A program made the position numbers and the translations under genes. Below the pieces are notes generated by a model. It searched no databases. It had not been told where the DNA came from and saw only the letters and a program-made list of their open reading frames with translations. DNA of 13,107 nt from a virus (taxonomy: Duplodnaviria > Heunggongvirae > Uroviricota > Caudoviricetes), in the IMG/VR virus record IMGVR_UViG_2648501150_000039; one strand, written 5' to 3'. Shown piece by piece: positions 1 to 13,100 of this stretch. Every line of letters starts with the position of its first letter. Position 1 is the first letter of the stretch.

Positions 1-16
1 AACATGAGCAAACAGA

Positions 17-46
17 CAAAAAAAGGGCCAGCCAATTGGCCAGCCC
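17..46 (-). terminator. Putative rho-independent terminator downstream of the 204..1133 gene
   Basis: Read on the minus strand, plus 25..46 forms an imperfect GC-rich hairpin (GGGCTGGCC-AATT-GGCTGGCCC, two G-U pairs) followed by a 7-nt U tract (plus 17..24 is AAAAAAA). It lies about 160 nt past the stop of the minus-strand CDS. Confidence 0.45.
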
Positions 47-203
47 TTCTTAACAGGATGTCGCTTAAGCGAAATCTTAGTTAAGACGCTTTTACATGAT
101 ACCATTGATAAACATGCATTTTTCATTATAAACAGTTAGTTATATGTATCACTAGTGTAGTCAAGTGCAGCCATAAACATGCTGTGTGGGCAGATTGTGG
201 ACA

Positions 204-1133
204 CTACTTATTTCCCTGTCCAATCTTACCCGCAACTGCCTCGGTAAGCTTTACTAAGGTTTCAAGTTCATTTTTGTCTAATTTTCTTGCTTCAATAATT
301 TCAGTAGTCTGCCCTGATTCTAGTTTTCCAACTCTTGAGCTAAAATTAATTTTATCCAGAAGGTCTATCATATCGATATCTTTCTGGCTAGCCATTACAA
401 GCTTTATAATGGCATAGCTTTCCTCACGTGAACGTTTTATTGCCTCGTAATAGCGAAACTCATCCATCGTAACCCGATATTGCTTCAAAAAGAAAAATGC
501 GATTAACTCCAAGAAAATCAACACGCCAAAATTAGGGAGAAGATACATTACCTTGGTTACCGCATCATCCTTAGCATCAATTACATGTGATTGAGAATAG
601 AAGAAACCTAATCCAACTATTGCAAAACAAACACCGACTAATAAATAAAGACTACCGCGAGAATATATGTTTTTCGCAAGACCTTCAGAGCTATTAATCA
701 AACCTTTAAGATAAAAATCCAGAGATTCATCTTCATCAGCAGCAGCCCTTTCCTCTTGAGCCTTCTTGAGTAGTTTTATCTCATTTATAATATCGACAAT
801 ATTAAACATCGATGATTTGTCGACTGAATCACTCCCTGTAATTCTCATAAACATTCTTTGGATTGGAGACACACCATAGATAATGGTGTAAACGATTACA
901 AATGACACTGCGAATATTGACCTGATAAAGCTCGGCAAATGTGTAAGATCTGCTCTCGCACTGGGAAATAAATAATAAAAGGTTGAGTCTAATATCCCTG
1001 TAGCAAAAATTACATTTGCAACTAGAAAGACTGCACCTATCTCAACTAAATTATAAAAACCACGAGTGCGTACCCTAATGACTTTGGCCTCGGTCATTCT
1101 TGGAGGTGTTTCGATGGTTGGCTCACTCATCAT
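204..1133 (-). CDS. Hypothetical membrane protein, four predicted transmembrane helices in two hairpins separated by a charged coiled-coil-like linker; function unknown
   Basis: 309-aa uninterrupted ORF. Hydrophobic stretches LVEIGAVFLVANVIFATGIL, IFAVSFVIVYTIIYGV, LYLLVGVCFAIVGLGFFY and VLIFLELIAFFFL. AGGA lies upstream of an ATGATG start. The gene is visibly AT-rich compared with the tail genes. I recognise no family. Confidence 0.6.
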   Translation of the reverse strand: MMSEPTIETPPRMTEAKVIRVRTRGFYNLVEIGAVFLVANVIFATGILDSTFYYLFPSARADLTHLPSFIRSIFAVSFVIVYTIIYGVSPIQRMFMRITGSDSVDKSSMFNIVDIINEIKLLKKAQEERAAADEDESLDFYLKGLINSSEGLAKNIYSRGSLYLLVGVCFAIVGLGFFYSQSHVIDAKDDAVTKVMYLLPNFGVLIFLELIAFFFLKQYRVTMDEFRYYEAIKRSREESYAIIKLVMASQKDIDMIDLLDKINFSSRVGKLESGQTTEIIEARKLDKNELETLVKLTEAVAGKIGQGNK

Positions 1134-1410
1134 ATAATCCTGTTAAATTAGAAATAGGGTTAAGAGTTACAGCTTCTTCTAAATGATCTGGTGCAAAATG
1201 AGCGTATCTCATGGTTTCCCTAATGTTAGAATGGCCCAAGATTCGTTGCAGTACTAAAATGTTCCCACCATTCATCATAAAGTGACTCGCAAATGTATGA
1301 CGTAACACATTCGTTTTTTGCCCTTCAGCTAACTCTATATCGGTCAGAGCGAGCATTTTCTTGAACTCCTGATAGCAGGGGTGGAACATTTTTCCCTGTA
1401 AAGGAGCCAA
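1123..1410 (-). pseudogene. Tyrosine recombinase (phage integrase) C-terminal fragment, 5'-truncated
   Basis: The 95-aa translation carries the catalytic C-terminal signature of tyrosine recombinases (VLRHTFASH ... LGHSNIRETMRYAH, with the His/Arg and Tyr boxes). The N-terminal two thirds are absent: sequence upstream of 1410 encodes tail-fibre segments on the other strand. The stop TGA overlaps the ATGATG start of the 204..1133 gene. Confidence 0.85.
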
Positions 1411-1447
1411 CTCGTCATATAGCCACCGAGGGATCGGTACTGTACGA

Positions 1448-1473
1448 TTCTTCTTTCCCTTGGTTTGGGAGAA
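1448..1473. repeat. Left crossover site of invertible segment (gix/hix-like, about 26 bp)
   Basis: The reverse complement of 1458..1474 (CTTCTCCCAAACCAAGG) matches 3466..3482 (CTTCTCCTAAACCAACG) at 15 of 17 positions, in inverted orientation. The half-site TTCTCCCAAACC resembles the Hin/Gin half-site (TTCTTGAAAACC / TTATCCAAAACC as I recall them). The central dinucleotide is AA/TT. The site sits in the fibre reading frame and encodes G-L-G-E. Confidence 0.7.
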
Positions 1474-1959
1474 GGCTCTGCATTACCTGTTGGCGTCCCT
1501 GTTCCGTGGCCTTCAGCCACACCGCCAACAGGCTGGCTGAAATGCAATGGTGCAGCTTTTTCTGCTGAAGAATACCCGGAACTGGCAAAGGCTTATCCGG
1601 CAAATAAATTGCCTGATTTACGTGGTGAGTTTATTCGTGGCTGGGATGACGGACGGGGGATTGATACAGGTCGCTCTATTTTAAGTATTCAGGGGTATGC
1701 AACGGAGGATCATGCTCATGGATTACCGTCAAGATCCACGATTGTGACTGATGCAACGATTAATTTCTATTTTGATGAAAGCTGGGTAAATAGTGGCACT
1801 GACATTATCAAAAGAGGAAACACAAACGATGCCGGATTACCAGCACCGGATTATGGAACCTTTAAAACATATAAACAATCAGTGGCTGGTTTAGGTGCCG
1901 CAGCCTCAGAAACGCGTCCGCGTAATATTGCATTTAACTATATCGTGAGGTCAGCCTGA
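1465..1959 (+). CDS. Tail fibre C-terminal variable segment (Sv-like, tail-collar type); lacks the N-terminal constant part
   Basis: Translation contains tail-collar-like motifs (PTGWLKCNGAAFSAEEYPELAKAY, LPDLRGEFIRGWDDGRGIDTGR). The frame is open only from 1423 and has no upstream coding sequence to join. The stop overlaps the start of the next gene (TGATG). Confidence 0.8.
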   Translation: MGEGSALPVGVPVPWPSATPPTGWLKCNGAAFSAEEYPELAKAYPANKLPDLRGEFIRGWDDGRGIDTGRSILSIQGYATEDHAHGLPSRSTIVTDATINFYFDESWVNSGTDIIKRGNTNDAGLPAPDYGTFKTYKQSVAGLGAAASETRPRNIAFNYIVRSA

Positions 1960-2561
1960 TGCATAAAGCAATATTAAATAGTGAGCTTATTGCAACAAAG
2001 GCAGGGGATGTTACCGTTTATAACTACGATGGTGAAACACGGGAATATATTTCCACGTCAACTGAATATCTTGCGGTTGGCGTCGGTATCCCGGCATGTT
2101 CTTGTTTAGATGCGCCAGTTACACATAAAGCTGGTTATGCAATCTGCCGTTCTGCAGATTTTAACTCATGGGAATATGTGCCAGACCATCGCGGTGAAAT
2201 CATCTATAGCACCGAAACAGGAGAATCGAAAGAAATCACAGCTCCGGGTGATTATCCTGAAAATACAACCACTATCGCCCCGTTAACGCCATACGATGAA
2301 TGGGATGGTGAGAAATGGGTAACAGATACTGTGGCACAGCATAGCGCCGCAGTAGGCGCGGCAGAAGCACAGCGTCAGTCACTGATTGATAATGCAATGG
2401 CTTCCATTAGTCTGATTCAGCTGAAATTGCAGGCCGGACGGAATCTGACGCAGGCAGAAACCGCCCGACTTAACGCTGCGCTGGATTACATTGACGCGGT
2501 GACGGCAACAGATACCAGCACCGCGCCGGATGTCATCTGGCCTGAACTGCCGGAGGCGTAG
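1959..2561 (+). CDS. Tail fibre assembly protein (Tfa / P2 gpG / Mu U family)
   Basis: 200 aa, immediately downstream of the fibre variable segment. The C-terminal DVIWPELPEA matches the conserved Tfa C-terminal motif. Confidence 0.85.
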   Translation: MHKAILNSELIATKAGDVTVYNYDGETREYISTSTEYLAVGVGIPACSCLDAPVTHKAGYAICRSADFNSWEYVPDHRGEIIYSTETGESKEITAPGDYPENTTTIAPLTPYDEWDGEKWVTDTVAQHSAAVGAAEAQRQSLIDNAMASISLIQLKLQAGRNLTQAETARLNAALDYIDAVTATDTSTAPDVIWPELPEA

Positions 2562-2976
2562 GCCATTCAATATCTGGCGCACCGGAAGTATCGACCAGTT
2601 CCAGTGCGTCCAGATAATCCAGCCACAAATTATATTGCGCCAGTTCCTCACCTTTCAGGCGACCAATCGCCGCTTTACCAGGCCATTGCTTACTGTATAT
2701 GTATTCGTTGACCTGATTAATCAATTGCTGCTTTTCCAGTTCGGCTGCAGCAATTTGTTCCTCATGAGTTGGCGGTGGAATTTCCCCCCAGGTGGGAAGG
2801 CCATCATCACCCGCGATGCGTACTTTCCCTTGCAACGTTCTGTCTTCAATAAATTCCAGGTAAGTGTCATATGTCACTTCGACAACATCAGCAAGTTCCC
2901 ATCCGGCCTGTTCATATTTCGCCACATCATTTTTAGCGAAAAAACTATTTTTTGAGGCGCTATAAACCATTTCCAT
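2533..2976 (-). CDS. Alternative tail fibre assembly protein (Tfa', opposite orientation)
   Basis: 147 aa, convergent with the other tfa gene and overlapping its 3' end by 29 bp. The C-terminal DIEWPTPPAV matches the Tfa motif. This is the Mu U/U'-like arrangement. Confidence 0.8.
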   Translation of the reverse strand: MEMVYSASKNSFFAKNDVAKYEQAGWELADVVEVTYDTYLEFIEDRTLQGKVRIAGDDGLPTWGEIPPPTHEEQIAAAELEKQQLINQVNEYIYSKQWPGKAAIGRLKGEELAQYNLWLDYLDALELVDTSGAPDIEWPTPPAVQAR

Positions 2977-2977
2977 A

Positions 2978-3553
2978 TTAATACCCTACTGCAATATAAA
3001 AAACTGATTCACCAGCGTCCTGAGAACCTACCCCCGGAACGCCAGACCAGGTTTTGTTAATGAATGCAAAACTGGTATTACTCAGATCAGATGCTCTGTA
3101 CATCGGGCTGAACATCCAGTAGTTGGCTCCATATGTTTGTCCGAAAACAATGCCATAGCACTGATTTGTAAATGGCGTAGAAAATAATTTTCCACCAGTA
3201 CCAGCGATAGTCCCGAATCGCATCTGGAACCCATTCGGGAAATTAATTCCGCCTGCCGGTGAAGACCAGTAAGACATATCAGGTATTTGCCCAGCACTAT
3301 TTCCCACGTTTTTTGTTGCAACGGTTCCTAACCCAAGATTAGCTCTTGCGTCAGATTTATTTGTTAACTCATAAAGATTATTTGCCTTTTGAAGTGCTCC
3401 TATTATGCGTAAATCATCACCAGCGGCAACGGTTCCGACTGTCGTGCCCACATCCCTTTTCGCCGCTTCTCCTAAACCAACGTTTTCGTTTTTATCCCTA
3501 CCTATACCAACTCTGTATTTTTCACGAAACAAAGAGGATGTTTTTTTATGCAA
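2978..3553 (-). CDS. Alternative tail fibre C-terminal variable segment (Sv'-like)
   Basis: Open frame on the minus strand running through the right crossover site, where it encodes NENVGLGE (the same GLGE junction as the left site). It is glycine-rich and fibre-like, and lies immediately upstream of tfa' on the same strand. The tracked start is an artefact; there is no constant N-terminal region. Confidence 0.7.
   Translation of the reverse strand: MHKKTSSLFREKYRVGIGRDKNENVGLGEAAKRDVGTTVGTVAAGDDLRIIGALQKANNLYELTNKSDARANLGLGTVATKNVGNSAGQIPDMSYWSSPAGGINFPNGFQMRFGTIAGTGGKLFSTPFTNQCYGIVFGQTYGANYWMFSPMYRASDLSNTSFAFINKTWSGVPGVGSQDAGESVFYIAVGY
3467..3492. repeat. Right crossover site of invertible segment (gix/hix-like)
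   Basis: TTCTCCTAAACC-AA-CGTTTTCGTTTT; 3466..3482 is the inverted-repeat partner of 1458..1474. It lies 55 bp upstream of the invertase start codon. Confidence 0.7.
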
Positions 3554-4147
3554 ATTGGCTATATTCGTGTGTCAACAAATGACCAGAACACGGATTTACA
3601 ACGCAATGCACTGAACTGCGCAGGATGTGAACTGATTTTTGAAGATAAAATCAGCGGAACGAAATCAGCCAGACCGGGATTGAAAAAACTGCTCAGAACG
3701 CTATCAGAAGGAGATACGCTGGTTGTCTGGAAGCTGGACAGACTGGGCAGAAGTATGAAACACCTGATCACGCTTATTGAGGAATTGCGGGAAAAAGGTG
3801 TTAATTTCCGTAGTCTGACGGACAGCATTGACACATCAACACCCATGGGGCGTTTCTTTTTTCACGTCATGGGGGCTTTAGCCGAAATGGAACGTGAATT
3901 AATTGTAGAGCGTACACTGGCCGGGCTGGCAGCAGCACGCGCACAAGGACGCATTGGCGGACGTCGCCCGAAGTTGACAAAAGAACAACACGAGCAAATA
4001 GCGAGGCTGATTAAAAACGGTCATGACAGGAAACAACTGGCGATCATTTACGACATCGGCATATCGACGATTTATCGTTATCACCCTGTAGGCGATATAC
4101 AGGCTGAAGAAACAACCAGGCAGACTCAGGAAAATAAAAACCGCTAA
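3548..4147 (+). CDS. Site-specific DNA invertase, serine recombinase (Hin/Gin/Pin/Cin family)
   Basis: The N-terminus MQIGYIRVSTNDQNTDLQRNAL contains the catalytic serine motif of resolvase/invertases. A C-terminal helix-turn-helix region follows (GRRPKLTKEQHEQIARLIKNGHDRKQLAIIYDIGISTIYRY). AGAGGA lies upstream of the ATG. The gene is adjacent to the invertible fibre segment. Confidence 0.95.
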   Translation: MQIGYIRVSTNDQNTDLQRNALNCAGCELIFEDKISGTKSARPGLKKLLRTLSEGDTLVVWKLDRLGRSMKHLITLIEELREKGVNFRSLTDSIDTSTPMGRFFFHVMGALAEMERELIVERTLAGLAAARAQGRIGGRRPKLTKEQHEQIARLIKNGHDRKQLAIIYDIGISTIYRYHPVGDIQAEETTRQTQENKNR

Positions 4148-4164
4148 TCTGACCATTAGCGGTT
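4139..4164. terminator. Bidirectional terminator hairpin between convergent invertase and gpU genes
   Basis: AACCGCTAAT-CTGACC-ATTAGCGGTT forms a 10-bp stem. T/A-rich flanks on both sides (AAAATAAAAA upstream, TTTTGCG downstream). The invertase stop codon lies inside the stem. Confidence 0.55.
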
Positions 4165-4173
4165 TTGCGTTAA

Positions 4174-4668
4174 TCAAAACAGCCCTTTAACGGAGCTGGC
4201 CGCGCTGTTAAGGGATGATGTGACCTTATCTTTGAAGCCGGACAGCATATCACTGAACGATGAGGATTGCAGGCGCTCCCGCAAATCCTCATCACAGCGT
4301 TCAAGAGTCAGTGAAAATTCTATCTTTTTCGCCTTACCGTAGCGATCAAACTCGGAACGGGTCGTATTCGTTTCAGTCAGTACATACATGCCGTAAATCT
4401 GCCCGACACCATCAATCAGAGGCCAGGGGCGTCCTGTATATGCCTGCGTGGTCAGCAACGAAAGCGACACTTCGCCACCTGTAATTTCAGGATAAAGCAC
4501 GCCGGAAAGCACGATGCGATCATCACCTGCGCCGATATACTGCCAGCTTGCTGAACGGTTAACGCGTTCATTTTTCACATGCCGCCAGCTTTTGTTTTGC
4601 TGTAACTGCTGATGCGGCAATGTGCGCAGCTCAAAAACAAACATGCCGTAGATCATCATCATGGCCAT
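4174..4668 (-). CDS. Phage tail protein, P2 gpU-like
   Basis: 164-aa ORF directly downstream of the tape measure gene in the same orientation, matching the position and size of gpU in the P2 FI-FII-E-T-U-D order. The exact start among several N-terminal Met codons is uncertain. Confidence 0.75.
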   Translation of the reverse strand: MAMMMIYGMFVFELRTLPHQQLQQNKSWRHVKNERVNRSASWQYIGAGDDRIVLSGVLYPEITGGEVSLSLLTTQAYTGRPWPLIDGVGQIYGMYVLTETNTTRSEFDRYGKAKKIEFSLTLERCDEDLRERLQSSSFSDMLSGFKDKVTSSLNSAASSVKGLF

Positions 4669-4674
4669 GACTCC

Positions 4675-7524
4675 TCAATCTTTATCGTAAAAACTGCCAC
4701 GCCCGGCACGGGCGCGCCGTTCCATTTCTGCCCTGACCATTTCGCCAATCAGTTTCGCCAGTTCGCGGGGATTCTGTGTAACAACGTTATGCAGATGAAC
4801 ATGAATTTCACCGCCAAATCCGGAGGCAACAGGCTCCCGGTTACGGGAAGTTGCAGGAACTGATGCCACTGGCGATCGTATAGCCTCCGCCACCGGGCGG
4901 GAGCTGGCCGCAACAACAGGGACCAGCGCCGGAGGCAGCGGAGCCGGAACCACGGGTGTGATAGTAATTGCGGGGGCAGGCTTACTGACCTGCGCAATCT
5001 TCCGCTCCTGCCACTCCCCACGAACAGCAAGTGCGCGGGGCAGGTTCTTAAAGACAATATCGCCGGGGCCAATGCGTTTTTTCGTCTCATCAACCAGCTT
5101 ACCTGTGTTATCAGCAATTTTGCTGAGTCTGCGTAGCGTACCGGTATTGTTGTCTGTGAGCGGTTTGTTGTCTCTGGGTTTATCGCCTTTTTTGTCGTCG
5201 ACCTTATCTGACGGGGCCGGGCCGGGAGTCCATGGTTTCTGAACCATTTTCTTGAGAACCGGATCCCATTCCCACATTACAGGAGCCTTTGAAGCGTTCT
5301 CTATTTTCTTTCTCGCCCGTTCCGCTTCATCCGGAAGCACTCCGAGCTTTTCAAGTATCCACGCCAGTGAATCCATCAATGCTTTTGTTGGCGTCAGGAC
5401 AAGCTCTATCGCTCCACCGAGTACCCTGCCGAATACCTCGCCAGCACTGGTACATTTATCCAGCGTTTCCTTGCTGGACTCCATCGGTGACAGCAGCGAT
5501 TTAAACCAGTTAAAGACCTGAATAATCCCATCGCGCACGACATCAAAAACTGGACCGAACCGTTCAAAGGTTTCGCGCAACGGAGCCAGCCGTTCCATAA
5601 TCCCACTGAACACCCCTGCATAAAACGCCTTGATGGGTTCCCAGTATTTCCAGATGAGAACCGCCGCAGCCACAAACGCAGCAGCAATCAATCCGACCGG
5701 GCTGAACAGCGCCCCGATAGCGCCCCCCAGTAACGAAACGGAACCCGTCACCATTCCCCATAGTGCTGGCAGGAGCCTGACAGCATTCATTGATCCGGTC
5801 AGGAGGGAAAAGCCAAGACGCAGTTTTGCCAGCGGGCCAGCAAGCACACCAATAGCCAACGACAACGAGCCGACCGTTGCAGTCATCGCCAGCAATGCCC
5901 CACCTGCAATCAGTAGCTGGCGCGTCAGTGCCGGATGGGCCTGCGCCAGCGCCGTCACCTTTGATACCACCCGCGTGAGCCACTGCGTGACAGAACGCAG
6001 CGGACCGTCAATCAGATCTGCAATGCGGATGCGCAACCCTTCCCATGCACTGCCGAGTGATTTCAGATCGCCGTCAAGGTTGTTGGCCATAACCTTTGCT
6101 GTGCGTTCAGCCTCACCGCGCGCGCCTTCAAGTTCTTTTCTCAGTTTGGGTAAGGAGCCGTCACCCGCTGCATCAACGAGCGCCATAAACGATGTGAAAG
6201 CCTCTTCTCCGGCAATGTCCTTAAAGAACGATACCCGGTCAACTTCCCCGTATTTGCGGGTGGCTTTATAAAGGTCGGCCAGTACATCCTCCATCGGGCG
6301 CATTTTGCCGTTCGCGTCAGAGACAGCCACACCCAGCTCTTTCAGCGCCTCTGCTGCCGCCTTTGGCGGTGATGCCAGACGAGCCAGGCTGGCACGCATT
6401 GCCGTCCCGGCATCACTCCCTCTGATGCCCATATTCGCCAGCACGCCCGCCATCGCAGCGGCCTGCTCCAGCGATATTCCCAGCTTACCCGCCACCGGAC
6501 CTGCATATTTCATGGTTTCGCCCAGCGCGCGAAGGTCAGTGTTGGTACGGGTAAACGCCGCTGTAAGCGTGTCGCCAACCCGGTCCATCTGGTCAGCAGA
6601 GAGGCCGAACTGCGTCAGGATATTTGAGCCAATATCCGCCGTCTCGCCGAGATCCATACCGCCAGCCGTTGCCATGCTCAGCACGCCGGGAAACGCAGCC
6701 TGAATGGCCTGCGGAGTAAAACCAGCCATTGCAAGAAATGCCTGTCCACTGGCGGCATCTCCAGCGGTGAACTGCGTTTCAGAGCCAAGTTTTAACGCCT
6801 GCTCACGCAGCGCCTTAAACTGTGGGCTGTTTTTGTCGATTCGCGTCAGTGCCTGAACGCGGGACATCTCTTTCCCGAACCCAATCGCGGGCTGCAAAAA
6901 ACGCCCGGCAGCATAGCCGCCCGCCGCTGCCGCACCTGTTGCCAGTGCACCACCTGTTTTCAGTTTTCCCGCGGTTTCCTGCGCGCGCGAATACCGCTCA
7001 CGCGCCCGCGTTACACGCGCAAGCGCCTGCCGTTCGCGTTCAAGCTGGTTGTTGTACTGTTCGGTGCGTCTGATGGCCTGCTGGATGGTGTTATCGCTGC
7101 CTGTCAGGGAAATGCCGTGGCGTTTCAGCTCTCCGCCAAGCTCCCGCATTTTCTGAATCTCCCGTGTGCGCGATTCATTCAGGCGTTCAAGCCGGGTGCT
7201 TAACTGCTGCATCAGCTTTTGTTGTTTTTCGCTGAGCACTGTACCCGTGCGTTGTAACTGATTAAGGGCGTTAAGCTGGCGTCGTGCTTTCACGATACCC
7301 GCATCCGCTTTACTGACAGCGTCGCGGGCGCGCTCAAATGAACGCGCCTGACGCTCGAGATTTTTGATCGCCCCCTGCGTTCGCTGGATGGAGTCACCAA
7401 ACTGCCCCATCAGGCGGCGTGCGTTTTCTGCAGGTCGGGTCAGCCTGTCAACGGCGCTGAAAGCGACCCGGATATCAAGAGTCTTCATTGTCTGCATTCC
7501 CGCTGCGAAGTGCCGCCCGCTCAC
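4675..7524 (-). CDS. Tail tape measure protein (P2 gpT-like)
   Basis: 949-aa ORF with a coiled-coil N-terminal third (repeated QRTxxL, ERxRQALAR-type heptads), a central Gly/Ala-rich hydrophobic segment, and a position between E/E' and U. The true start may be an internal Met (MQTMKTL), overlapping the end of E'. Confidence 0.9.
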   Translation of the reverse strand: MSGRHFAAGMQTMKTLDIRVAFSAVDRLTRPAENARRLMGQFGDSIQRTQGAIKNLERQARSFERARDAVSKADAGIVKARRQLNALNQLQRTGTVLSEKQQKLMQQLSTRLERLNESRTREIQKMRELGGELKRHGISLTGSDNTIQQAIRRTEQYNNQLERERQALARVTRARERYSRAQETAGKLKTGGALATGAAAAGGYAAGRFLQPAIGFGKEMSRVQALTRIDKNSPQFKALREQALKLGSETQFTAGDAASGQAFLAMAGFTPQAIQAAFPGVLSMATAGGMDLGETADIGSNILTQFGLSADQMDRVGDTLTAAFTRTNTDLRALGETMKYAGPVAGKLGISLEQAAAMAGVLANMGIRGSDAGTAMRASLARLASPPKAAAEALKELGVAVSDANGKMRPMEDVLADLYKATRKYGEVDRVSFFKDIAGEEAFTSFMALVDAAGDGSLPKLRKELEGARGEAERTAKVMANNLDGDLKSLGSAWEGLRIRIADLIDGPLRSVTQWLTRVVSKVTALAQAHPALTRQLLIAGGALLAMTATVGSLSLAIGVLAGPLAKLRLGFSLLTGSMNAVRLLPALWGMVTGSVSLLGGAIGALFSPVGLIAAAFVAAAVLIWKYWEPIKAFYAGVFSGIMERLAPLRETFERFGPVFDVVRDGIIQVFNWFKSLLSPMESSKETLDKCTSAGEVFGRVLGGAIELVLTPTKALMDSLAWILEKLGVLPDEAERARKKIENASKAPVMWEWDPVLKKMVQKPWTPGPAPSDKVDDKKGDKPRDNKPLTDNNTGTLRRLSKIADNTGKLVDETKKRIGPGDIVFKNLPRALAVRGEWQERKIAQVSKPAPAITITPVVPAPLPPALVPVVAASSRPVAEAIRSPVASVPATSRNREPVASGFGGEIHVHLHNVVTQNPRELAKLIGEMVRAEMERRARAGRGSFYDKD

Positions 7525-7711
7525 GCCAGCTAACCACTTCGCCGGGCGTCATCATGAAGATTTCGGCGGGCGACCAGTTAAAAATAACGGCAATATCTGC
7601 CACAAAGTCTTCTATGTGCTCAAAGCACACAACCGTGATCAGGCTTCCGTCGCCTGTTCGTTCTTCCCGCCAGAGTCCGCACCGCTCAAAAAATTTACGG
7701 CAACCACACAT
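7475..7711 (-). CDS. E' frame: C-terminal extension of the E+E' tail assembly chaperone, reached by -1 frameshift
   Basis: This ORF is in the -1 frame relative to E, begins around the slippery heptamer, and ends overlapping the start of T, as in the P2 E/E'/T arrangement. It is not an independent gene. Confidence 0.7.
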   Translation of the reverse strand: MCGCRKFFERCGLWREERTGDGSLITVVCFEHIEDFVADIAVIFNWSPAEIFMMTPGEVVSWRERAALRSGNADNEDS

Positions 7712-8004
7712 AACTGAATAAAGTCACGGGATGCCATTTTTTTGATCGTCACTTCATCCAGTCGCGGTGATGTCACGCGTGACAGCAGCGTAAACATGGA
7801 TTCCGCTTTCAGATTCAGCACATCAGACAGCGACAAATCTCGCAGAGATCCAGCCTGCTCAATAGCCCCGGTGATCTCCACATACGTGATTTTTTCGCCG
7901 CCTCGCTCAATTGGTTGGGTAAGTTTTACGCCACGCTCACTGGTTTCTTTCACAGTGTCAGCAACTACCGTGTTTTCGGTATCGATGTTTTTCGTCTCTT
8001 TCAT
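7639..8004 (-). CDS. Tail assembly chaperone, P2 gpE-like (0-frame product)
   Basis: 121-aa ORF between the tail tube and tape measure genes. AAAGGAG lies 7 nt upstream of the ATG. It contains the slippery site near its 3' end. Confidence 0.75.
   Translation of the reverse strand: MKETKNIDTENTVVADTVKETSERGVKLTQPIERGGEKITYVEITGAIEQAGSLRDLSLSDVLNLKAESMFTLLSRVTSPRLDEVTIKKMASRDFIQLCVVAVNFLSGADSGGKNEQATEA
7687..7693 (-). other. Programmed -1 ribosomal frameshift slippery heptamer T_TTT_TTG (E to E+E')
   Basis: The minus strand reads GTA AAT TTT TTG AGC in the E frame (V N F L S). Slipping back one nucleotide enters the 7475..7711 frame (RKFFERCGLW...). TTTTTTG is the heptamer used by P2-like E/E' genes. 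Confidence 0.75.
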
Positions 8005-8058
8005 CAGGAAACTCCTTTCAGTCAGAGGCGGCGCACTGCGCCGCCTGCATATTACTTA

Positions 8059-8571
8059 TCAGCCAAGCCCAAGCGCGGAACGGATGCGATCGGGCACAAT
8101 GTCCTTGCCGTCCTTCCGGTAAATGAAGTTCAGCAGGTCAATCTCCCACAACGGGCGATCGTTAACACTCAGCTTGTAGTAGGTGTTTTTAATGGCGTAA
8201 GTGTGTGATGTGGCTTCGCCCTGTTTGGCTTCCCCCATATCAATTTCCGTCACACGTCCGCGCATCTCGATTTCATACAGATCGCTTTCTGCATCGGTGT
8301 AGTATTCACCCGCAAAACGCAGCAGCGTGCCGTCAATCGTGCCGCCATACTTAAGGAACAGCTCACGAACTGCGCCCCCCATGACAAAGCTCGCATCAAG
8401 CGCGGAGTCGTCCAGACCGAGATCAATACTTACCGCACCCATCATGCCACCACCCCGGTAGCTGTCGGTTTTGCGCGTCAGCTTAGGCAGAGTGACGGAC
8501 GTCACCTTACCCACTTCGTTTTCACCATCCACAAACAGCGTAAAAAAGCGAAGATGTTTTGGTACAGCCAT
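8059..8571 (-). CDS. Tail tube protein (P2 gpFII-like)
   Basis: 170 aa, immediately downstream of the sheath gene with a TGATG stop/start overlap. Size and position match the P2 tube protein. Confidence 0.85.
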   Translation of the reverse strand: MAVPKHLRFFTLFVDGENEVGKVTSVTLPKLTRKTDSYRGGGMMGAVSIDLGLDDSALDASFVMGGAVRELFLKYGGTIDGTLLRFAGEYYTDAESDLYEIEMRGRVTEIDMGEAKQGEATSHTYAIKNTYYKLSVNDRPLWEIDLLNFIYRKDGKDIVPDRIRSALGLG

Positions 8572-9755
8572 CAGGCACCTCCCAGCACCGCAAATGCGGG
8601 ACCAAAGAATTCATCAGTAAACGACTGGTAAAGCTCCATGTCTTCCAGCGGGGGAACAGGCGTATATTTGTAGCGAATACGCACACGCCCCTGACGTAAA
8701 TTCGTGGTGCCGTTATCCACCACGTCATACCAGCACGACGCCCCAATCAGTTTCCCGGCAGTAACCAGTGAATCCAGTTTTGCCCTGATGGCACTGATAA
8801 CATCTTTCACGTTCGCAGGCGTCAGTGGACTGTCGATGGTTTCAAACTGCGCTTCCGCAATTGAATCAGCCAGCACCTGTGCGGTTCGGGTATACACCTC
8901 AAAGATGTAGGCGTTCGTTTCCGGTGTGCGGTTGCCCCAGAAGCGGAACCCGTTGCGACGAATAATGGTCGTGATTTCTTTGTTGTTGAGGCTGTTGGCA
9001 TCGCTGTCTTCGGCCTGCAACGACCAGAACACATGCCTGGACATCCCCAGCACATTTTTAACCGGAACGTTGGACAGTGATTTGTGCCATCCCTGCTCAT
9101 GGTCAATGTACGCACGAAGGCCGCACGCATAGGCAGGCGCGGGGAACGTTTCGTTTTTGCCACTTTTCGGGTTGTAGGCGATGAAGTCCGGCCATAAGAG
9201 CATCACCTCACGTTCGTTGAATTTCTGGCGGTAGGTAATCACCTCAGCCATCGTGTTACAGCCGTGACATGAGGCATACACAAACGCGCGCAGTTTACCC
9301 GCAATCACGCACAGGGATTTTGTCACCGCCTCCGTGTCCAGCTCCGGCGCGGCCAGAATACGCGGACGGTATCCGATGCTTTCATCCTGCTCTGCAACAA
9401 GCAGCGCATACATCCCCGTATAGCTGCCGTCAGATTCAGAACCACCGATAACCAGTTGATCCTGCGTCTTTCCGTCTTCTTCTTTGTGTTCAGCCACGCG
9501 AACGACGATCACCTTTGTGCTCACCTGGTCTGCGATGGCCTTAAGCGCACGATAAAGCGTCCCCGTTGTCCCGCATTTTCCCAGCACGTCATTGACGCGG
9601 GTCAGCAGTGTGGGCTTGTTCAGCGGGAACAGCTTCGCGTCCGCATCATCCGCCGTTGCCACGATACCGATAACGCTGGAATCAACATCGTTAATCGCTG
9701 TTACCAGGTCGGTATTTTCCGTAACACGGGCACCATGAAAACGAGTTTCACTCAT
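8571..9755 (-). CDS. Contractile tail sheath protein (P2 gpFI-like)
   Basis: 394 aa. Motifs I recall from P2 FI are present: FPLNKP, KLRAF, YRQKF, WPDF, EQGWHKSLSNV, RRNGFRFWGNRT, YTRTAQV, YTPVPPLE. AAGGGG lies upstream of the ATG. Confidence 0.92.
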   Translation of the reverse strand: MSETRFHGARVTENTDLVTAINDVDSSVIGIVATADDADAKLFPLNKPTLLTRVNDVLGKCGTTGTLYRALKAIADQVSTKVIVVRVAEHKEEDGKTQDQLVIGGSESDGSYTGMYALLVAEQDESIGYRPRILAAPELDTEAVTKSLCVIAGKLRAFVYASCHGCNTMAEVITYRQKFNEREVMLLWPDFIAYNPKSGKNETFPAPAYACGLRAYIDHEQGWHKSLSNVPVKNVLGMSRHVFWSLQAEDSDANSLNNKEITTIIRRNGFRFWGNRTPETNAYIFEVYTRTAQVLADSIAEAQFETIDSPLTPANVKDVISAIRAKLDSLVTAGKLIGASCWYDVVDNGTTNLRQGRVRIRYKYTPVPPLEDMELYQSFTDEFFGPAFAVLGGA

Positions 9756-9912
9756 AGCTTTAGCCCCTTGTATCCGTTAAATGATTCGGCAACAATCATC
9801 ACCCACCACGCGCGTAATCTCACCCCTGTGCCGTTCTCCCGATCCGGCGACAACAAAAAGCAGTAACCCCCTCCGCACGCACATGCGACCATGCCGCACA
9901 GGGAGGGAACAG

Positions 9913-11022
9913 ATGACCGATACCACCATGCAATTGCTCAGTCAGGGCACAGACCCCGTGAAAATGCCGGATTTTGATATTCTCGCGGAGGGTAAAACGC
10001 TGTCAGGCGTGGCAGAGCGCCTGATGAGCCTGTCACTGACCGACAACCGGGGATTTGACGCGGACCAGCTCACCATCACGCTGGATGATGCGGATGGTCA
10101 GTTGCAGCTACCGCCACGGGGCGCGCGCCTGACGGTTCTCATTGGCTGGAAAGGAGAACCGCTGACAGAAAAAGGCACTTACATTGTTGATGAAATCGCT
10201 CACGAAGGACCGCCGGACAGGCTGACTGTTTCAGCCAGAAGCGCAGATTTTCGGGATGAATTTAACGTTAAACGTGAGGTGTCCTGGCATGATGTGACCG
10301 TTGAGCGTGTGGTATCCGCCATCGCTCATCGGTATGGTCTGAAACCGCAAATCAGCGAAATGCTGATGGATATCGAAATCGACCACGCCGACCAGACCGA
10401 AGAAAGCGATATGTCCTTCCTTACGCGCATGGCGGAAATGCTGGGCGCAATCACCACGGTAAAAAGCGGCAATCTGTTATTCATCATGCCAGGTGGTGGC
10501 GTGAACGCACAGGGCCAGCCGTTGCCATCGTTCGCCATCACACGCAGCAGCGGCGATCGCCATCAGTTCCGCATTGCTGACCGCGAGGCGTATACGGGGG
10601 TACGCGCTTACTGGCTTGATCTTAATTACGGGAAAAAGAAAAAAGTCAGCGTGAAACGCCGCAAACCGCCAAAACCCAAAAAGGAGAAAAGCAGCAGCCG
10701 TGAAGGTGATTATATGGAAGGCGCGGAAGGCAATGTGTTTGTGTTACGCAAGACTTATCAGAACGAGCAGGCAGCAAGACGCGCAGCGGCGGCAAAGTGG
10801 CAGCAGCTACAACGCGGAGCCGCATCATTTTCCATCACGCTGGCGCGTGGACGTGCAGAACTCTACCCCGAAATGCATGGCACGGTAACAGGATTTAAAA
10901 GCGAGATTGATAATCAGGACTGGATTATTGCAAAAGCCGAGCACACCATTGATAACAGCGGCTTTACCACGCAGCTTGAGCTTGAGGCAAAAATCCCGGA
11001 ATGGATAGCAGAAACAGCGTGA
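9913..11022 (+). CDS. Phage late control gene D family tail protein (P2 gpD-like)
   Basis: Long ORF; the likely start is the ATG at 9913, preceded by GGGAGGGAA (the tracked ORF starts upstream at 9781). Size is about 370 aa. The call rests on overall resemblance to P2 gpD as recalled and on its position next to the other P2 tail genes and ogr. Confidence 0.8.
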   Translation: MTDTTMQLLSQGTDPVKMPDFDILAEGKTLSGVAERLMSLSLTDNRGFDADQLTITLDDADGQLQLPPRGARLTVLIGWKGEPLTEKGTYIVDEIAHEGPPDRLTVSARSADFRDEFNVKREVSWHDVTVERVVSAIAHRYGLKPQISEMLMDIEIDHADQTEESDMSFLTRMAEMLGAITTVKSGNLLFIMPGGGVNAQGQPLPSFAITRSSGDRHQFRIADREAYTGVRAYWLDLNYGKKKKVSVKRRKPPKPKKEKSSSREGDYMEGAEGNVFVLRKTYQNEQAARRAAAAKWQQLQRGAASFSITLARGRAELYPEMHGTVTGFKSEIDNQDWIIAKAEHTIDNSGFTTQLELEAKIPEWIAETA

Positions 11023-11075
11023 ATGTCTTAAATGTATTAGTTCAGATATGTACTAGCAATAAACATAGTTAGAAA

Positions 11076-11091
11076 GGCCGCTAACGCGGCC
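11076..11091. terminator. Hairpin between convergent gpD and the 11114..12283 gene (possible bidirectional terminator)
   Basis: GGCCGC-TAAC-GCGGCC, a 6-bp GC stem with a tetraloop in an AT-rich context. It is located after both stop codons. The U-tracts are weak. Confidence 0.4.
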
Positions 11092-11113
11092 ATATTAATT
11101 AAAACTCCAGTTA

Positions 11114-12283
11114 CTAATATTGAGAAAGATAATCAGCGACTCCATCTGCAGGGTTTCGCCCACCAGTATAAATTGTGCCTAATTCTTGAGGTGTAACATA
11201 TGTTGTAGGCCAAATGGCCATATTTTTAAAATAGTTATCTATTTTTATTCTTTGAAGTTCTTTAAAGAGATAATCTTCTAAGTCATTTCTTTTTAGACAG
11301 TTAACATAATAAGCAGCCGCACTTGCTACTATATCTACAATTTGTAATTGAGGATACTCTTGTGATGAATGGAATGTCAAAGAACGAGCTTTAATTGGCA
11401 ATTCAAATTTTCTTCGATCATAACCATATGCCTCCGTAATTTTTGATATATCCATAAATTTATCAAAAATATCTTTCTTCTCTGTAATAGCTTTGGAATC
11501 GTCATGCTTAATATAAAAACCATTAGGGTATAATTTACCCCATTCTACACAGTGTCTAAAGAGGCTTGGTATAGATGGATCTAATGTGCTTTTCTCAACA
11601 CCTTCCAATATATCATCAATATCGCTTCTGGTAATACTAATTCTGTTTATTATATCTGTGAATATCTTATCACTTGAGCATATCTTTAACTCATCAATTA
11701 CCCTGTAAAATTCATCAATTGACTCAGTCGATTGGCTTCTGATCATATTCATAAAACACTGATACATTACCTCTGTTTTTTCCTCCCCACAGAAAGCAGG
11801 GAAACAGAAATAGTAAACATTAGACAGAGCTAGATTCTGTCCATTTATATAAAGATCTATTCCTCTATTAGAGCACCACGTCTCGATCAAAATATCAACA
11901 ATCTTTGCTGTTAGCATGTATTTTTTATCGACCAAGTATATTTTAACATTCTCTTCATTGACATATTTGCTTTCAAGAAGCCTAATGATGCCATCCTGAC
12001 CAGATTTTCTACGTCTAAGAGTTTTAAAGTGGGCTTCTGTTGGAGACTTGCTTCCGGTTAGTTCTAATGCCTTAAGCGCATCCTGTTTACTAATACTACT
12101 TGAACTTAAGGTAAAAACAGGTTGCAATGGATCGAGTAAATTTCCGCCAGTATTACCTGATTCATCAAAAAATATATCAGGCTTTATATACAACATTTTA
12201 TTTATCTTTGCCGCTAAGTTTCTTTTTTTCTCATTTTCTCGCTTAATTTTATTATCTCGCCTACGTTGACTATTCTTTCCCAT
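11114..12283 (-). CDS. Hypothetical protein, AT-rich cargo gene; possible DUF3800-like family (motif-level recall only)
   Basis: 389-aa uninterrupted ORF antisense to both gpD and ogr. K/R-rich N-terminus, then DIFFDESGNTGG; near the C-terminus QLQIVDIVASAAAYY. These resemble the DESG and Q-x-x-(A/V)-D signatures I associate with DUF3800. Codon usage is strongly AT-biased, unlike the flanking phage genes. Confidence 0.65.
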   Translation of the reverse strand: MGKNSQRRRDNKIKRENEKKRNLAAKINKMLYIKPDIFFDESGNTGGNLLDPLQPVFTLSSSSISKQDALKALELTGSKSPTEAHFKTLRRRKSGQDGIIRLLESKYVNEENVKIYLVDKKYMLTAKIVDILIETWCSNRGIDLYINGQNLALSNVYYFCFPAFCGEEKTEVMYQCFMNMIRSQSTESIDEFYRVIDELKICSSDKIFTDIINRISITRSDIDDILEGVEKSTLDPSIPSLFRHCVEWGKLYPNGFYIKHDDSKAITEKKDIFDKFMDISKITEAYGYDRRKFELPIKARSLTFHSSQEYPQLQIVDIVASAAAYYVNCLKRNDLEDYLFKELQRIKIDNYFKNMAIWPTTYVTPQELGTIYTGGRNPADGVADYLSQY

Positions 12284-12515
12284 AAATACCTCACAATCTG
12301 AATTAGATATCCCAATTTAACGCATTAATAACATAATGTTATGATATCACACAATCAAAATAACGTGCTGATTTTAATGTATCAGGTTTGACTAGCTATT
12401 CTTTGATAAGCGAATAATAAGAATGTCAGCCCCTCAACTCAAAGCGGTTTAGTCAGTTGGAATCGGAGCTAGTAGAACTTAAAATAACAGAAGCACCACG
12501 TTAAGGGAGGTCTCT

Positions 12516-12776
12516 ATGTTCCGTTGTCCGCTTTGTGGCGCATCTGCCCGTATCCGCACAAGTCGTCCGGAAAATGATTCAAACACCGTGCGGCAAAAGT
12601 ATTACCAGTGTAACAACCTGGAATGCGGCGTATGCTTCTCAACACTGGAAGCCTTCCATAAATTCACATCAAAACACGCCTCCGCCGTTCACTCTTCAGA
12701 AGGTATCCCGTGGCATGAGCTGCCAGCTTCACACAGGGGAAACAATCAGATGAGTTTGCCTTTACCTCAGAACTAA
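12516..12776 (+). CDS. ogr: Ogr/Delta-family zinc-finger late transcription activator
   Basis: The N-terminus MFRCPLCGASARIRTSR ... YYQCNNLEC gives a C-x2-C ... C-x4-C zinc-finger spacing close to P2 Ogr (MFHCPLC ... CQNVNC). Strong SD AAGGGAGG lies upstream. It sits downstream of gpD, as in P2. Confidence 0.85.
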   Translation: MFRCPLCGASARIRTSRPENDSNTVRQKYYQCNNLECGVCFSTLEAFHKFTSKHASAVHSSEGIPWHELPASHRGNNQMSLPLPQN

Positions 12777-12785
12777 CAGGCAGAA

Positions 12786-12814
12786 TTGCCGGATTAACAA
12801 AAAAGCGATAGATT
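12786..12814 (+). promoter_or_regulatory. Putative sigma70 promoter for the hok-family mRNA
   Basis: TTGCCG (12786..12791), a 17-nt spacer, then TAGATT (12809..12814). The predicted transcript would start about 145 nt upstream of the toxin ATG, giving the long structured leader typical of hok mRNAs. Confidence 0.3.
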
Positions 12815-12836
12815 ACGCGCGGGTGCCTTTCGGCTG

Positions 12837-13100
12837 ATGGTCGGAGGGAATACCCGAAGGCCAGATGTGGAAAGGCCCCGGAAAACATCTCTGTTTAACC
12901 GAGGCCCTAACCGCATTACCTTGACAAGTGAAAGGTTAGCGCCTCTCCGGAAAAGGAGCAAGTGCTATGTCGCAAAAATCGCTTACGGCCATCACGTTCT
13001 GCGTGACGGCAATCCTCATCATCTGGATGCTGCACGGTTCACTGTGCGAAATACGGATGAGCTTCTGGGGAGCGGAGTTTGCGGCGTTCTTACAGTGTAA
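12837..13100 (+). other. mok-like overlapping reading frame (possible translational-coupling ORF for the hok-family toxin)
   Basis: 87-codon ORF in a different frame that overlaps almost the whole toxin ORF and ends 7 nt before it. This is analogous to mok in hok/sok loci, but may be fortuitous. Confidence 0.3.

Follow-up and report, generated by a model that had tools for sequence, protein, structure and literature searches.

The tail genes of phage P2 form the F operon, in which pF is followed by FI-FII-E-E'-T-U-D and then by ogr. All of these genes point the same way, and the operon ends with D. A canonical order of the type inv-FI-FII-E-T-U-D-ogr is annotated in P2, E. coli E2348/69 and RM14516. 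Phages P88 (Xuanwuvirus P88, NC_026014) and 500465-2 (Gemsvirus, NC_049343) are annotated with the invertase gene on the plus strand, U-T-E'-E-FII-FI on the minus strand, and D and ogr on the plus strand. Both P88 and phiSM are inducible and functional as phages (PMC5285337, PMC6456863). A literature search found no published description of the inverted block, and the arrangement is not taken up in the papers retrieved on P88 and phiSM; it is known from deposited annotations, not from print.

The window, that is, the whole stretch of 13,107 nucleotides analysed here, has the layout of the latter two phages. Genes, order and strands match both from the invertase to ogr, and the nucleotide identity over positions 3554-11022 is 94% to P88 and 91% to 500465-2. 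The FI-D spacer is conserved in this comparison as well.

Gene order of the tail module

The features of the window are listed in Table 1. Pfam matches above the curated cut-offs for FI, FII, GpE, T, GpU, GPD and Ogr_Delta reveal a P2-like (Peduoviridae) module; the match of E to Phage_TAC_7 is weak, with 17.2 bits against a cut-off of 25. The first-pass annotation had FI to U on the minus strand, with gpD, ogr and the invertase on the opposite one, and the Pfam assignments confirm this. The window hence does not show the co-directional FI-FII-E-T-U-D-ogr order of P2. A single inversion would restore it, as had been proposed: turning 4174-9912 yields inv-FI-FII-E-T-U-D-ogr. An exact-protein look-up of the 949-aa tape-measure ORF returned zero matches because the called start differs.

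Table 1. Annotated and predicted features of the window, in order of position.
Feature	Position	Strand	Evidence or remark
Chromosomal flank downstream of yfiB	1..203	+	100% identical to E2348/69; also in contig L102
Tyrosine integrase, C-terminal fragment, cut at quasi-crossover site	1123..1459	-	Pfam Phage_integrase
Left crossover site TTCTTCTTTCCC-TT-GGTTTGGGAGAA	1448..1473	+	20/24 to consensus
Invertible tail-fibre segment	1465..3553		Pfam Collar and Caudo_TAP
Hv	1465-1959	+	Tail-fibre segment
tfa	1959-2561	+	Tail-fibre segment
tfa'	2533-2976	-	Tail-fibre segment
Hv'	2978-3553	-	Tail-fibre segment
Right crossover site TTCTCCTAAACC-AA-CGTTTTCGTTTT	3467..3492	+	Core inverted relative to left site; score 17
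Serine DNA invertase, Din family	3548..4147	+	Pfam Resolvase (1.5e-51) and HTH_7
Symmetric hairpin, 12-bp stem, A-run on one side and T-run on the other	4137..4166		Between the stops of invertase and U
Tail operon FI-FII-E-E'-T-U	4174..9755	-	Pfam; gene calls, identical contig L102; P88 colinear
GpU	4174-4668	-	Pfam
T, tape measure	4675-7488/7524	-	Pfam
GpE'	7475-7630	-	Pfam
E	7639-8004	-	Weak Phage_TAC_7 match
FII, tube	8059-8571	-	Pfam
FI, sheath	8571-9755	-	Pfam
Predicted -10 of FI promoter, GATGAT	9795..9800	-	34 nt from dyad
Ogr-type activator dyad, on minus strand TGT-CGCCGGATCGGG-AGA	9836..9853		Sole dyad in FI-D spacer
Predicted -10 of D promoter, GACCAT	9887..9892	+	34 nt from dyad, opposite side
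gpD, 369 aa	9913..11022	+	Pfam Phage_GPD; P2 gpD alignment
Terminator-like hairpin 3' of D	11076..11091	+	Consensus match only
DUF3800 cargo gene, AT-rich, between D and ogr	11114..12283	-	
ogr, late activator, zinc finger	12516..12776	+	Pfam Ogr_Delta

The longest ORF for D begins at 9781, and the true start is almost certainly the ATG at 9913. A GGGAGGG Shine-Dalgarno sequence lies 5 nt before this ATG, the resulting protein aligns with P2 gpD from residue 1 to the end at 50% identity, and gene callers give a D of 369 aa in all relatives. The start at 9781 (a 413-aa ORF, as in the annotation of 500465-2) is ruled out by the Shine-Dalgarno sequence, the P2 gpD alignment and the gene calls. 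The divergent spacer of 157 bp between FI and D (9756-9912), described earlier from the ORFs, is therefore right. At the other end of the block, invertase and tail operon had been described as convergent on a common terminator. The hairpin in this position is probably the bidirectional terminator of both.

The gene content between D and ogr is variable. The DUF3800 gene is missing in P88, and other genes take its place in 500465-2 and E2348/69. PADLOC and NCBIfam gave no match that would indicate a defence function for this gene or for a 309-aa gene. A sigma-70-like site (12457-12485, a promoter-like match) precedes ogr.

A prophage remnant and its invertase

The window is the right-hand remnant of a P88-type prophage. 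The left prophage boundary lies within positions 1..203. Unlike in P88 and 500465-2, the region from int to the constant part of the tail-fibre gene H is deleted: at 1448-1473, the integrase fragment directly adjoins the invertible segment, genes for head and baseplate are missing between yfiB and this segment, and the window is not a complete phage. To the right of hok there may be a tandem P88-type prophage that entered the remnant at yfiB through homologous recombination. The integrase gene is partial in the annotation of E2348/69 and intact in RM14516, and measured on the intact relative in RM14516, the deletion comprises about 21 kb. The left crossover site is a hybrid, with its outer half derived from int and its inner half from the tail-fibre segment after an exchange at the core TT. 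A secondary-site event of the invertase deleted the stretch that reaches from int to the crossover site of the tail-fibre segment. The window is not a chimera of two E2348/69 loci; only some stretches are 100% identical to two different prophages of that genome, the rest about 94%, and an identical public contig exists.

A second event is documented in a sister prophage (L097, 99.97% identical). The common part of its tail-fibre segment (window 2280-3466) has the opposite orientation, and the inversion ends at a quasi-site within the invertase gene (window 3879-3904), which agrees with the crossover consensus at only about 8 of 24 positions by manual count. In both events, one good half-site of a true crossover site was kept per junction. 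The invertase of the P88-type family acts at secondary sites, and does so away from the tail block. Quasi-site recombination is known for Cin; in the P88-type family, such events by a tail-fibre invertase can be seen in clear-cut natural cases. A deletion of some 21 kb and the inversion of a part of the invertase gene itself represent one route of prophage decay.

Distribution and origin of the divergent arrangement

Colinearity with the window over both junctions, or most of them, extends to at least six further deposited phages, namely P884B11, 520873, 503458, Citrobacter phage Shae_phiSM, PhiR44_2 and Chuche. Of 5426 complete E. coli genomes searched, 1379 matched the FI/D junction (window 9400-10300), and it was unbroken in 1358. 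A survey located 80 loci via FI, with one genome per species. D and ogr were divergent from FI in 50 loci, and 30 were canonical. The divergent loci belong to about 20 genera across Enterobacterales and Aeromonas. FI identity goes down to 50% within this set, and the FI-D spacer was estimated at about 137-198 bp in the 50 loci, leaving out two with truncated matches. The close relatives that were read all have one block orientation. In a neighbour-joining tree of FI, the 30 canonical loci are monophyletic; one old change therefore suffices to explain the distribution. Under midpoint rooting, a divergent locus (L056) is placed beside the canonical clade.

Two readings had been offered by the first-pass annotation, an established lineage-specific arrangement and an origin by the invertase at secondary sites. 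The former is supported because many independent relatives, comprising P88, 500465-2, 1358 E. coli genomes and 50 surveyed loci, share the orientation and a conserved junction, which speaks against a recent rearrangement. With a probability of about 0.88, the tail block is a fixed architecture of a deep P2-like branch, the P88 group (Xuanwuvirus, Gemsvirus) with relatives in Enterobacterales and Aeromonas, and not a local rearrangement. The FI tree is unrooted as to the direction of the ancient change; we infer an old event by which a segment of pF and FI-FII-E-E'-T-U came to oppose D-ogr. The arrangement would thereafter have been passed on vertically and by modular exchange. Among the 50 divergent loci, no more than 8 have an invertase beside U. 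Of the 30 canonical loci, 9 have one upstream of FI, as does the canonical remnant of E2348/69 (L003). Being absent beside U in most divergent loci and present in some canonical ones, the invertase argues for an arrangement that is independent of it.

The second reading is not supported for the block. It is very improbable that the neighbouring invertase inverted the 5.6 kb recently, in this strain or close ancestors of it, by use of secondary sites in 4148-4173 and 9756-9912. Secondary-site use as such is seen in the hybrid site at 1448-1473 and in the sister prophage with its inversion to 3879-3904, and a half-site match of 10/12 is present at 9834-9845. Inspection of the two junctions, however, revealed no crossover-like and no hybrid sites. 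A consensus derived from both true crossover sites, which score 20 and 17 of 24 against it, was used to scan the window. At the U end, the best match in 4100-4200 was 13/24, the background level. The match at 9834 reached 15/24, but has a GG core, overlaps the Ogr dyad, falls in its variable N12 and differs among relatives. Quasi-sites can easily escape such a similarity scan, since the proven quasi-site at 3879-3904 is itself a poor match, and the recent inversion is rejected mainly because of distribution and geometry. The same orientation and junction occur in the 1358 E. coli genomes, at least eight deposited phages and about 20 genera. Had the true right site been used, the invertase gene would have moved along and would now lie next to D. 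This is not seen; invertase and right crossover site are still at their normal position. Both block ends would therefore need to be quasi-sites, and they lack the half-site of a true crossover site that characterises the two documented events.

An old, lineage-founding inversion by a site-specific recombinase, such as an invertase of the Din family, with footprints since erased by divergence, is unlikely. Invertases are common neighbours of the block in both arrangements and demonstrably make aberrant inversions and deletions, but no footprint is left, neither break point lies in a true crossover site and an invertase is lacking in most divergent-type loci. The result is accounted for equally well by illegitimate recombination or by an exchange of modules between phages. 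An origin of the block orientation from a misjoin in a short-read draft can practically be dismissed. A 37.5-kb draft contig (JHRF01000033.1) indeed contains the window at 100% identity, and the window's configuration of integrase fragment and P88-type block is absent from the 5426 complete E. coli genomes. Both block junctions, however, are found in many closed genomes and phage genomes, and any assembly doubt concerns the region around 2280-2500 in the invertible segment, not the tail block. The fixed architecture has a practical side: the gene order is not to be flagged as a rearrangement or misassembly in genomes of E. coli, Salmonella, Klebsiella and relatives, and the divergent order is a reliable marker for P88-type versus P2/186-type prophages.

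The FI-D spacer as a candidate late promoter region

D is divergent from FI and therefore needs its own promoter. The activator dyad of the window has one mismatch (AGA) to TGT-N12-ACA; of 24 relatives examined, 15 have the perfect motif in the corresponding position. A P88-type prophage has the element TTGTTGT-N12-AGAAC in its P/O spacer as well. No second Ogr dyad for D was found up to 240 nt upstream of FI in 25 sequences scanned. The distance from the dyad (TGT-N12-ACA/AGA) to the -10-like hexamers is 34 nt on both sides in 19 of 19 aligned sequences (35 on the D side in two), and both hexamers have an A in position 2 and a T in position 6 in all of them. GACCAT on the D side is weak, with 3/6 matches to TATAAT, and the predicted D leader is short (~13 nt). 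A scan of the spacer found no sigma-70 consensus promoter, as expected for activator-dependent promoters. The elements of Ogr/Delta-dependent promoters, an upstream TGT-N12-ACA dyad, a weak -10 and no -35, are thus present with the one dyad mismatch.

These features suggest the following mechanism. Ogr, expressed from its own promoter upstream of 12516, would bind the single dyad at 9836-9853 and activate two symmetric divergent late promoters. The leftward promoter, with its predicted -10 at 9800-9795, would start near 9789 and serve FI to U, ending at the hairpin 4137-4166. The rightward promoter, with its predicted -10 at 9887-9892, would start near 9900 and serve D. For both starts, the prediction is modelled on those annotated in P2, 3016 and 3127. 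Judged from geometry and conservation, one activator site probably drives FI-U and D alike. On balance, we lean slightly towards a true bidirectional late promoter in the spacer, with an Ogr dimer site midway (34 nt to each -10) activating both units. It would be a second, independently arisen design of the pP/pO kind, and its emergence would have allowed the split of the F operon and the fixation of the opposite tail block.

Comparison with Din-type inversion systems and P2 late promoters

The window shares a serine invertase and 26-bp crossover sites with the Din-family segments (Gin of Mu, Cin of P1, Pin of e14 and Hin). As in these systems, the core dinucleotides are opposite and alternative fibre tips are encoded with assembly proteins. 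In the window, the DNA turned by the Din-type system is the 2-kb segment 1448-3492. Crossover sites of this kind are lacking in the 5.6-kb tail block, which was never seen flipped.

The tail module comprises the same eight gene families as the F operon of P2 with ogr, and FI and D are 46% and 50% identical to their P2 counterparts. P2 pF has a dyad with a spacing of 35 nt, and FI of the window is likewise preceded by an Ogr-type dyad about 34-35 nt upstream of a -10-like hexamer. In P2, D is transcribed with the F operon; in the window it faces away from FI. In layout, the spacer resembles P2 pP/pO. In the P2 record, both promoters are assigned a single activator site, with starts 111 bp apart, and the sequence reads a 34/34 spacing as in the FI-D spacer. 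The predicted starts of the window are also about 111 bp apart. In P2, starts and Ogr binding are mapped, while those of the window are predicted. With a geometry like that of pP/pO, D would still be under late control despite having left the F operon, and the split operon seems to stay under this control through a single shared activator site. Such a layout would be a simple case of regulation accommodating an operon inversion. P2 pP/pO serves capsid and packaging genes, whereas the spacer of the window would serve FI-U and D.

Gene order of the tail block

The gene order of the window is unusual in comparison with P2 and ordinary in comparison with its own relatives. In the P2 record, pF, FI, FII, E, E', T, U, D and ogr all lie on one strand; the departure of the window from this order, noted in the first-pass annotation, is confirmed. 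The gene identities and strands given there agree with a map built from the ORF listing and Pfam scans. A gpD start at 9781, the first ATG of the ORF, was rejected. A strong Shine-Dalgarno sequence lies just before 9913, the protein from this position aligns with P2 gpD from residue 1 (50% identity), and gene callers call gpD as 369 aa in all relatives. The divergent FI-D spacer is therefore 9756-9912, and its proposed length of 157 bp stands.

Features of the window, with the -10-like hexamers of the FI-D spacer
Feature	Position	Strand	Source or remark
309-aa gene, function unknown, AT-rich DNA	204-1133	-	ORF listing
Tyrosine integrase, C-terminal fragment	1123-1410	-	ORF listing/Pfam
Fibre tip, invertible tail-fibre segment	1465-1959	+	ORF listing/Pfam
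Assembly protein, invertible tail-fibre segment	1959-2561	+	ORF listing/Pfam
Second assembly protein, invertible tail-fibre segment	2533-2976	-	ORF listing/Pfam
Second fibre tip, invertible tail-fibre segment	2978-3553	-	ORF listing/Pfam
Serine invertase	3548-4147	+	ORF listing/Pfam
gpU	4174-4668	-	ORF listing/Pfam
Tape measure T	4675-7488 by gene call; ORF reaches 7524	-	ORF listing/Pfam
GpE'	7475-7630	-	ORF listing/Pfam
E	7639-8004	-	ORF listing/Pfam
Tube FII	8059-8571	-	ORF listing/Pfam
Sheath FI	8571-9755	-	ORF listing/Pfam
Hexamer GATGAT, towards FI	9800-9795	-	34 nt from dyad
Hexamer GACCAT, towards D	9887-9892	+	34 nt from dyad
gpD	start 9913	+	ORF listing/Pfam
DUF3800 gene, 32% G+C DNA	11114-12283	-	ORF listing/Pfam
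ogr	12516-12776	+	ORF listing/Pfam
hok/mok-like region	after ogr	+	ORF listing

Phage P88 (94% identity to the window over 3554-11022) and phage 500465-2 (91% over the same range) are annotated with the same order and strands. P884B11, 520873, 503458, Citrobacter phage Shae_phiSM, PhiR44_2 and Chuche are also colinear. Both P88 and phiSM can be induced and are functional (PMC5285337, PMC6456863), so the tail-block order is compatible with virion assembly. A 901-bp probe of the FI/D junction was unbroken in 1358 of 1379 matching complete E. coli genomes. The invertase/U junction probe was unbroken in 621 genomes; in many others, U was joined to something other than the window's invertase. No close relative was seen with the tail block the other way round; the 2-kb fibre segment, by contrast, was found flipped. 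The arrangement is already known from deposited, annotated phage genomes, and no comment on it was found in the literature searched, P88 and phiSM papers included.

Two relatives deserve a separate remark. In the P88-type prophage of E2348/69 next to ihfA (L004, 20168-21268), gpD is annotated as shortened with a neighbouring pseudogene fragment, so this otherwise complete-looking prophage may be defective. In draft contig JHRJ01000008.1 (L106, 6448-13522), a P88-type tail block is interrupted within the tape-measure gene, an invertase gene stands on either side of a fibre segment, and Mu-like genes adjoin gpU. The layout suggests an exchange between different prophages at their invertible segments.

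A hairpin at 4137-4166, between the invertase and U (12-bp stem, A-run on one side and T-run on the other), is a plausible two-way terminator. The 309-aa gene lies between the chromosomal flank and the integrase, and in RM14516 it adjoins the intact integrase. It had no convincing family match in Pfam, NCBIfam and PADLOC, with one weak PADLOC match to Cas5a (E = 0.0015). An AT-rich island (11023-12515, 32% G+C) separates D and ogr, with the DUF3800 gene on the opposite strand. P88 has nothing in this slot, and 500465-2 and E2348/69 have other genes there; with such variable contents, it looks like a cargo hotspot. The exact DUF3800 protein is listed in 2658 blocks of a public collection, and the gene had no match in PADLOC and NCBIfam. 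An 87-aa ORF (12837-13100), without family match, overlaps the site of a 46-aa Hok/Gef toxin gene in relatives. It probably represents the overlapping, mok-like frame of a hok/sok-type locus located where the prophage ends.

Age of the arrangement and the role of the invertase

One genome per species was scanned with an FI alignment, yielding 80 loci on which FI, FII, E, T, U, D, ogr and the invertase were placed by tblastn. D and ogr diverge from FI in 50 loci, from Salmonella, Citrobacter, Edwardsiella, Enterobacter, Kosakonia, Symbiopectobacterium, Mixta, Pantoea, Erwinia, Izhakiella, Klebsiella, Trabulsiella, Kluyvera, Raoultella, Brenneria, Serratia, Pectobacterium, Yokenella, Photorhabdus, Xenorhabdus and Aeromonas. 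The other 30 have the canonical order (Pantoea, Rahnella, Erwinia, Ewingella, Mixta, Winslowiella, Ralstonia, Paraburkholderia). All canonical loci fall into one clade of an unrooted FI neighbour-joining tree, so one arrangement change on one branch suffices. FI identity inside the divergent set is as low as 50%, and judged from these sequences the change is old. Beta-proteobacterial phages have the canonical order, which hints that this was the ancestral one, although the tree is unrooted.

The first-pass annotation had considered an inversion of the tail block by the invertase at secondary sites. Among the 50 divergent loci, only 8 have an invertase adjoining U. Canonical loci have one too, upstream of FI, in 9 of 30 cases, as do the canonical prophages of E2348/69 and RM14516. 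The pseudo-crossover sites envisaged at the block junctions did not emerge. A consensus built from the two true sites scored these at 20/24 (1448-1473, core TT) and 17/24 (3467-3492, core AA). The best match near the U end was 13/24, which is background, in a scan that is weak by itself since a proven quasi-site fits the consensus poorly. The match at 9834 (15/24, core GG) coincides with part of the activator dyad, namely its variable spacer, whose sequence changes from relative to relative. Had the true right site been used, the invertase gene would have moved along and would now adjoin D; it is in its normal place, which leaves quasi-sites as the only option for both ends. Distribution, sites, geometry and the single orientation in close relatives all speak against the invertase; both a recent inversion and one made by the invertase are rejected. 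The other reading in the first-pass annotation, that of a stable lineage architecture, is correct: P88, 500465-2, the E. coli genomes with an unbroken FI/D junction and the divergent loci share this orientation.

Secondary-site events and mosaic origin

The tail-block ends are unlike the products that the invertase does leave at secondary sites. The left edge of the fibre segment is joined to a truncated integrase, and the junction was aligned with the intact integrase of RM14516 and an intact fibre gene. The integrase quasi-site TTCTTCTTTCCC-TT-CGTTTTAGTGAA and the fibre site TTCTTGATTACC-TT-GGTTTGGGGGAA yield the hybrid site TTCTTCTTTCCC-TT-GGTTTGGGAGAA of the window (1448-1473), with the exchange exactly at the core TT. 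TT is on the same strand in both parental sites; the orientation is therefore direct and deletion is the expected product. The junction thus bears the signature of an invertase-made deletion, which marks the prophage as a deletion remnant. On the intact RM14516 prophage, the deletion measures about 21 kb (integrase quasi-site ~1590, fibre crossover ~22665, locus positions). The closed E2348/69 genome has an identical junction, and a similar deletion between invertase and integrase was reported for C. rodentium CRPr20 (PMC6456863). The sister prophage L097 (99.97% identical to the window over 3891-12861) carries an inversion that splits the invertase gene: the left fibre site has become joined to a quasi-site within this gene. 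The quasi-site (window 3879-3904, TAGCCGAAATGG-AA-CGTGAATTAATT) fits the consensus poorly; the exchange is at the core AA/TT (L097, about 9060-9095 and 11455-11480).

The matches of the window reveal a mosaic. Its left part, from 1 to ~2500, is almost the same as the yfiB remnant of E2348/69, whose own tail block is canonical; the part from 2280 to 12970 matches an intact P88-type prophage (L100) at 99.75% identity. P88-type prophages with the same DUF3800 gene lie next to ihfA in 8 of 8 places read. The combination was absent from all complete E. coli genomes searched; draft contig JHRF01000033.1 (assembly GCA_001265355.1) matches the window at 100% identity. If a circular P88-type genome entered the resident remnant by one homologous crossover, this combination would result; an assembly misjoin inside the shared assembly-protein genes is also possible. 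The tail-block junctions are seen in closed genomes and are unaffected by either origin.

A putative shared late promoter

D needs a promoter because it is separated from pF. A scan of the window's FI-D spacer found no sigma-70 consensus promoter. The spacer alignment of the window and 18 diverse relatives contains a single conserved dyad, TGT-CGCCGGATCGGG-AGA in the window (minus strand, 9853-9836); no second dyad was found in the FI-D spacers scanned. A perfect TGT-N12-ACA occupies the same place in 15 of 24 relatives scanned. All 19 aligned sequences have, at 34 nt on each side of the dyad (35 in two cases, D side), a -10-like hexamer whose second base is A and whose sixth is T. Geometry, conservation and likeness to P2 pP/pO therefore lead us to propose one Ogr site that would drive both FI-U and D, with predicted starts near 9789 and 9900. 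Like the quasi-site events, this promoter model is a minor side result that can be tested.

In a P88-type prophage, the P/O spacer contains TTTTGTTGT-N12-AGAAC, with the same flanks as the FI/D dyad of the window. P2 pF has a 35-nt spacing. P2 pP and pO share one annotated activator site between divergent starts 111 bp apart (3016 and 3127); their dyad (3063-3080) has -10-like hexamers 34 nt off on both sides, as in the window.
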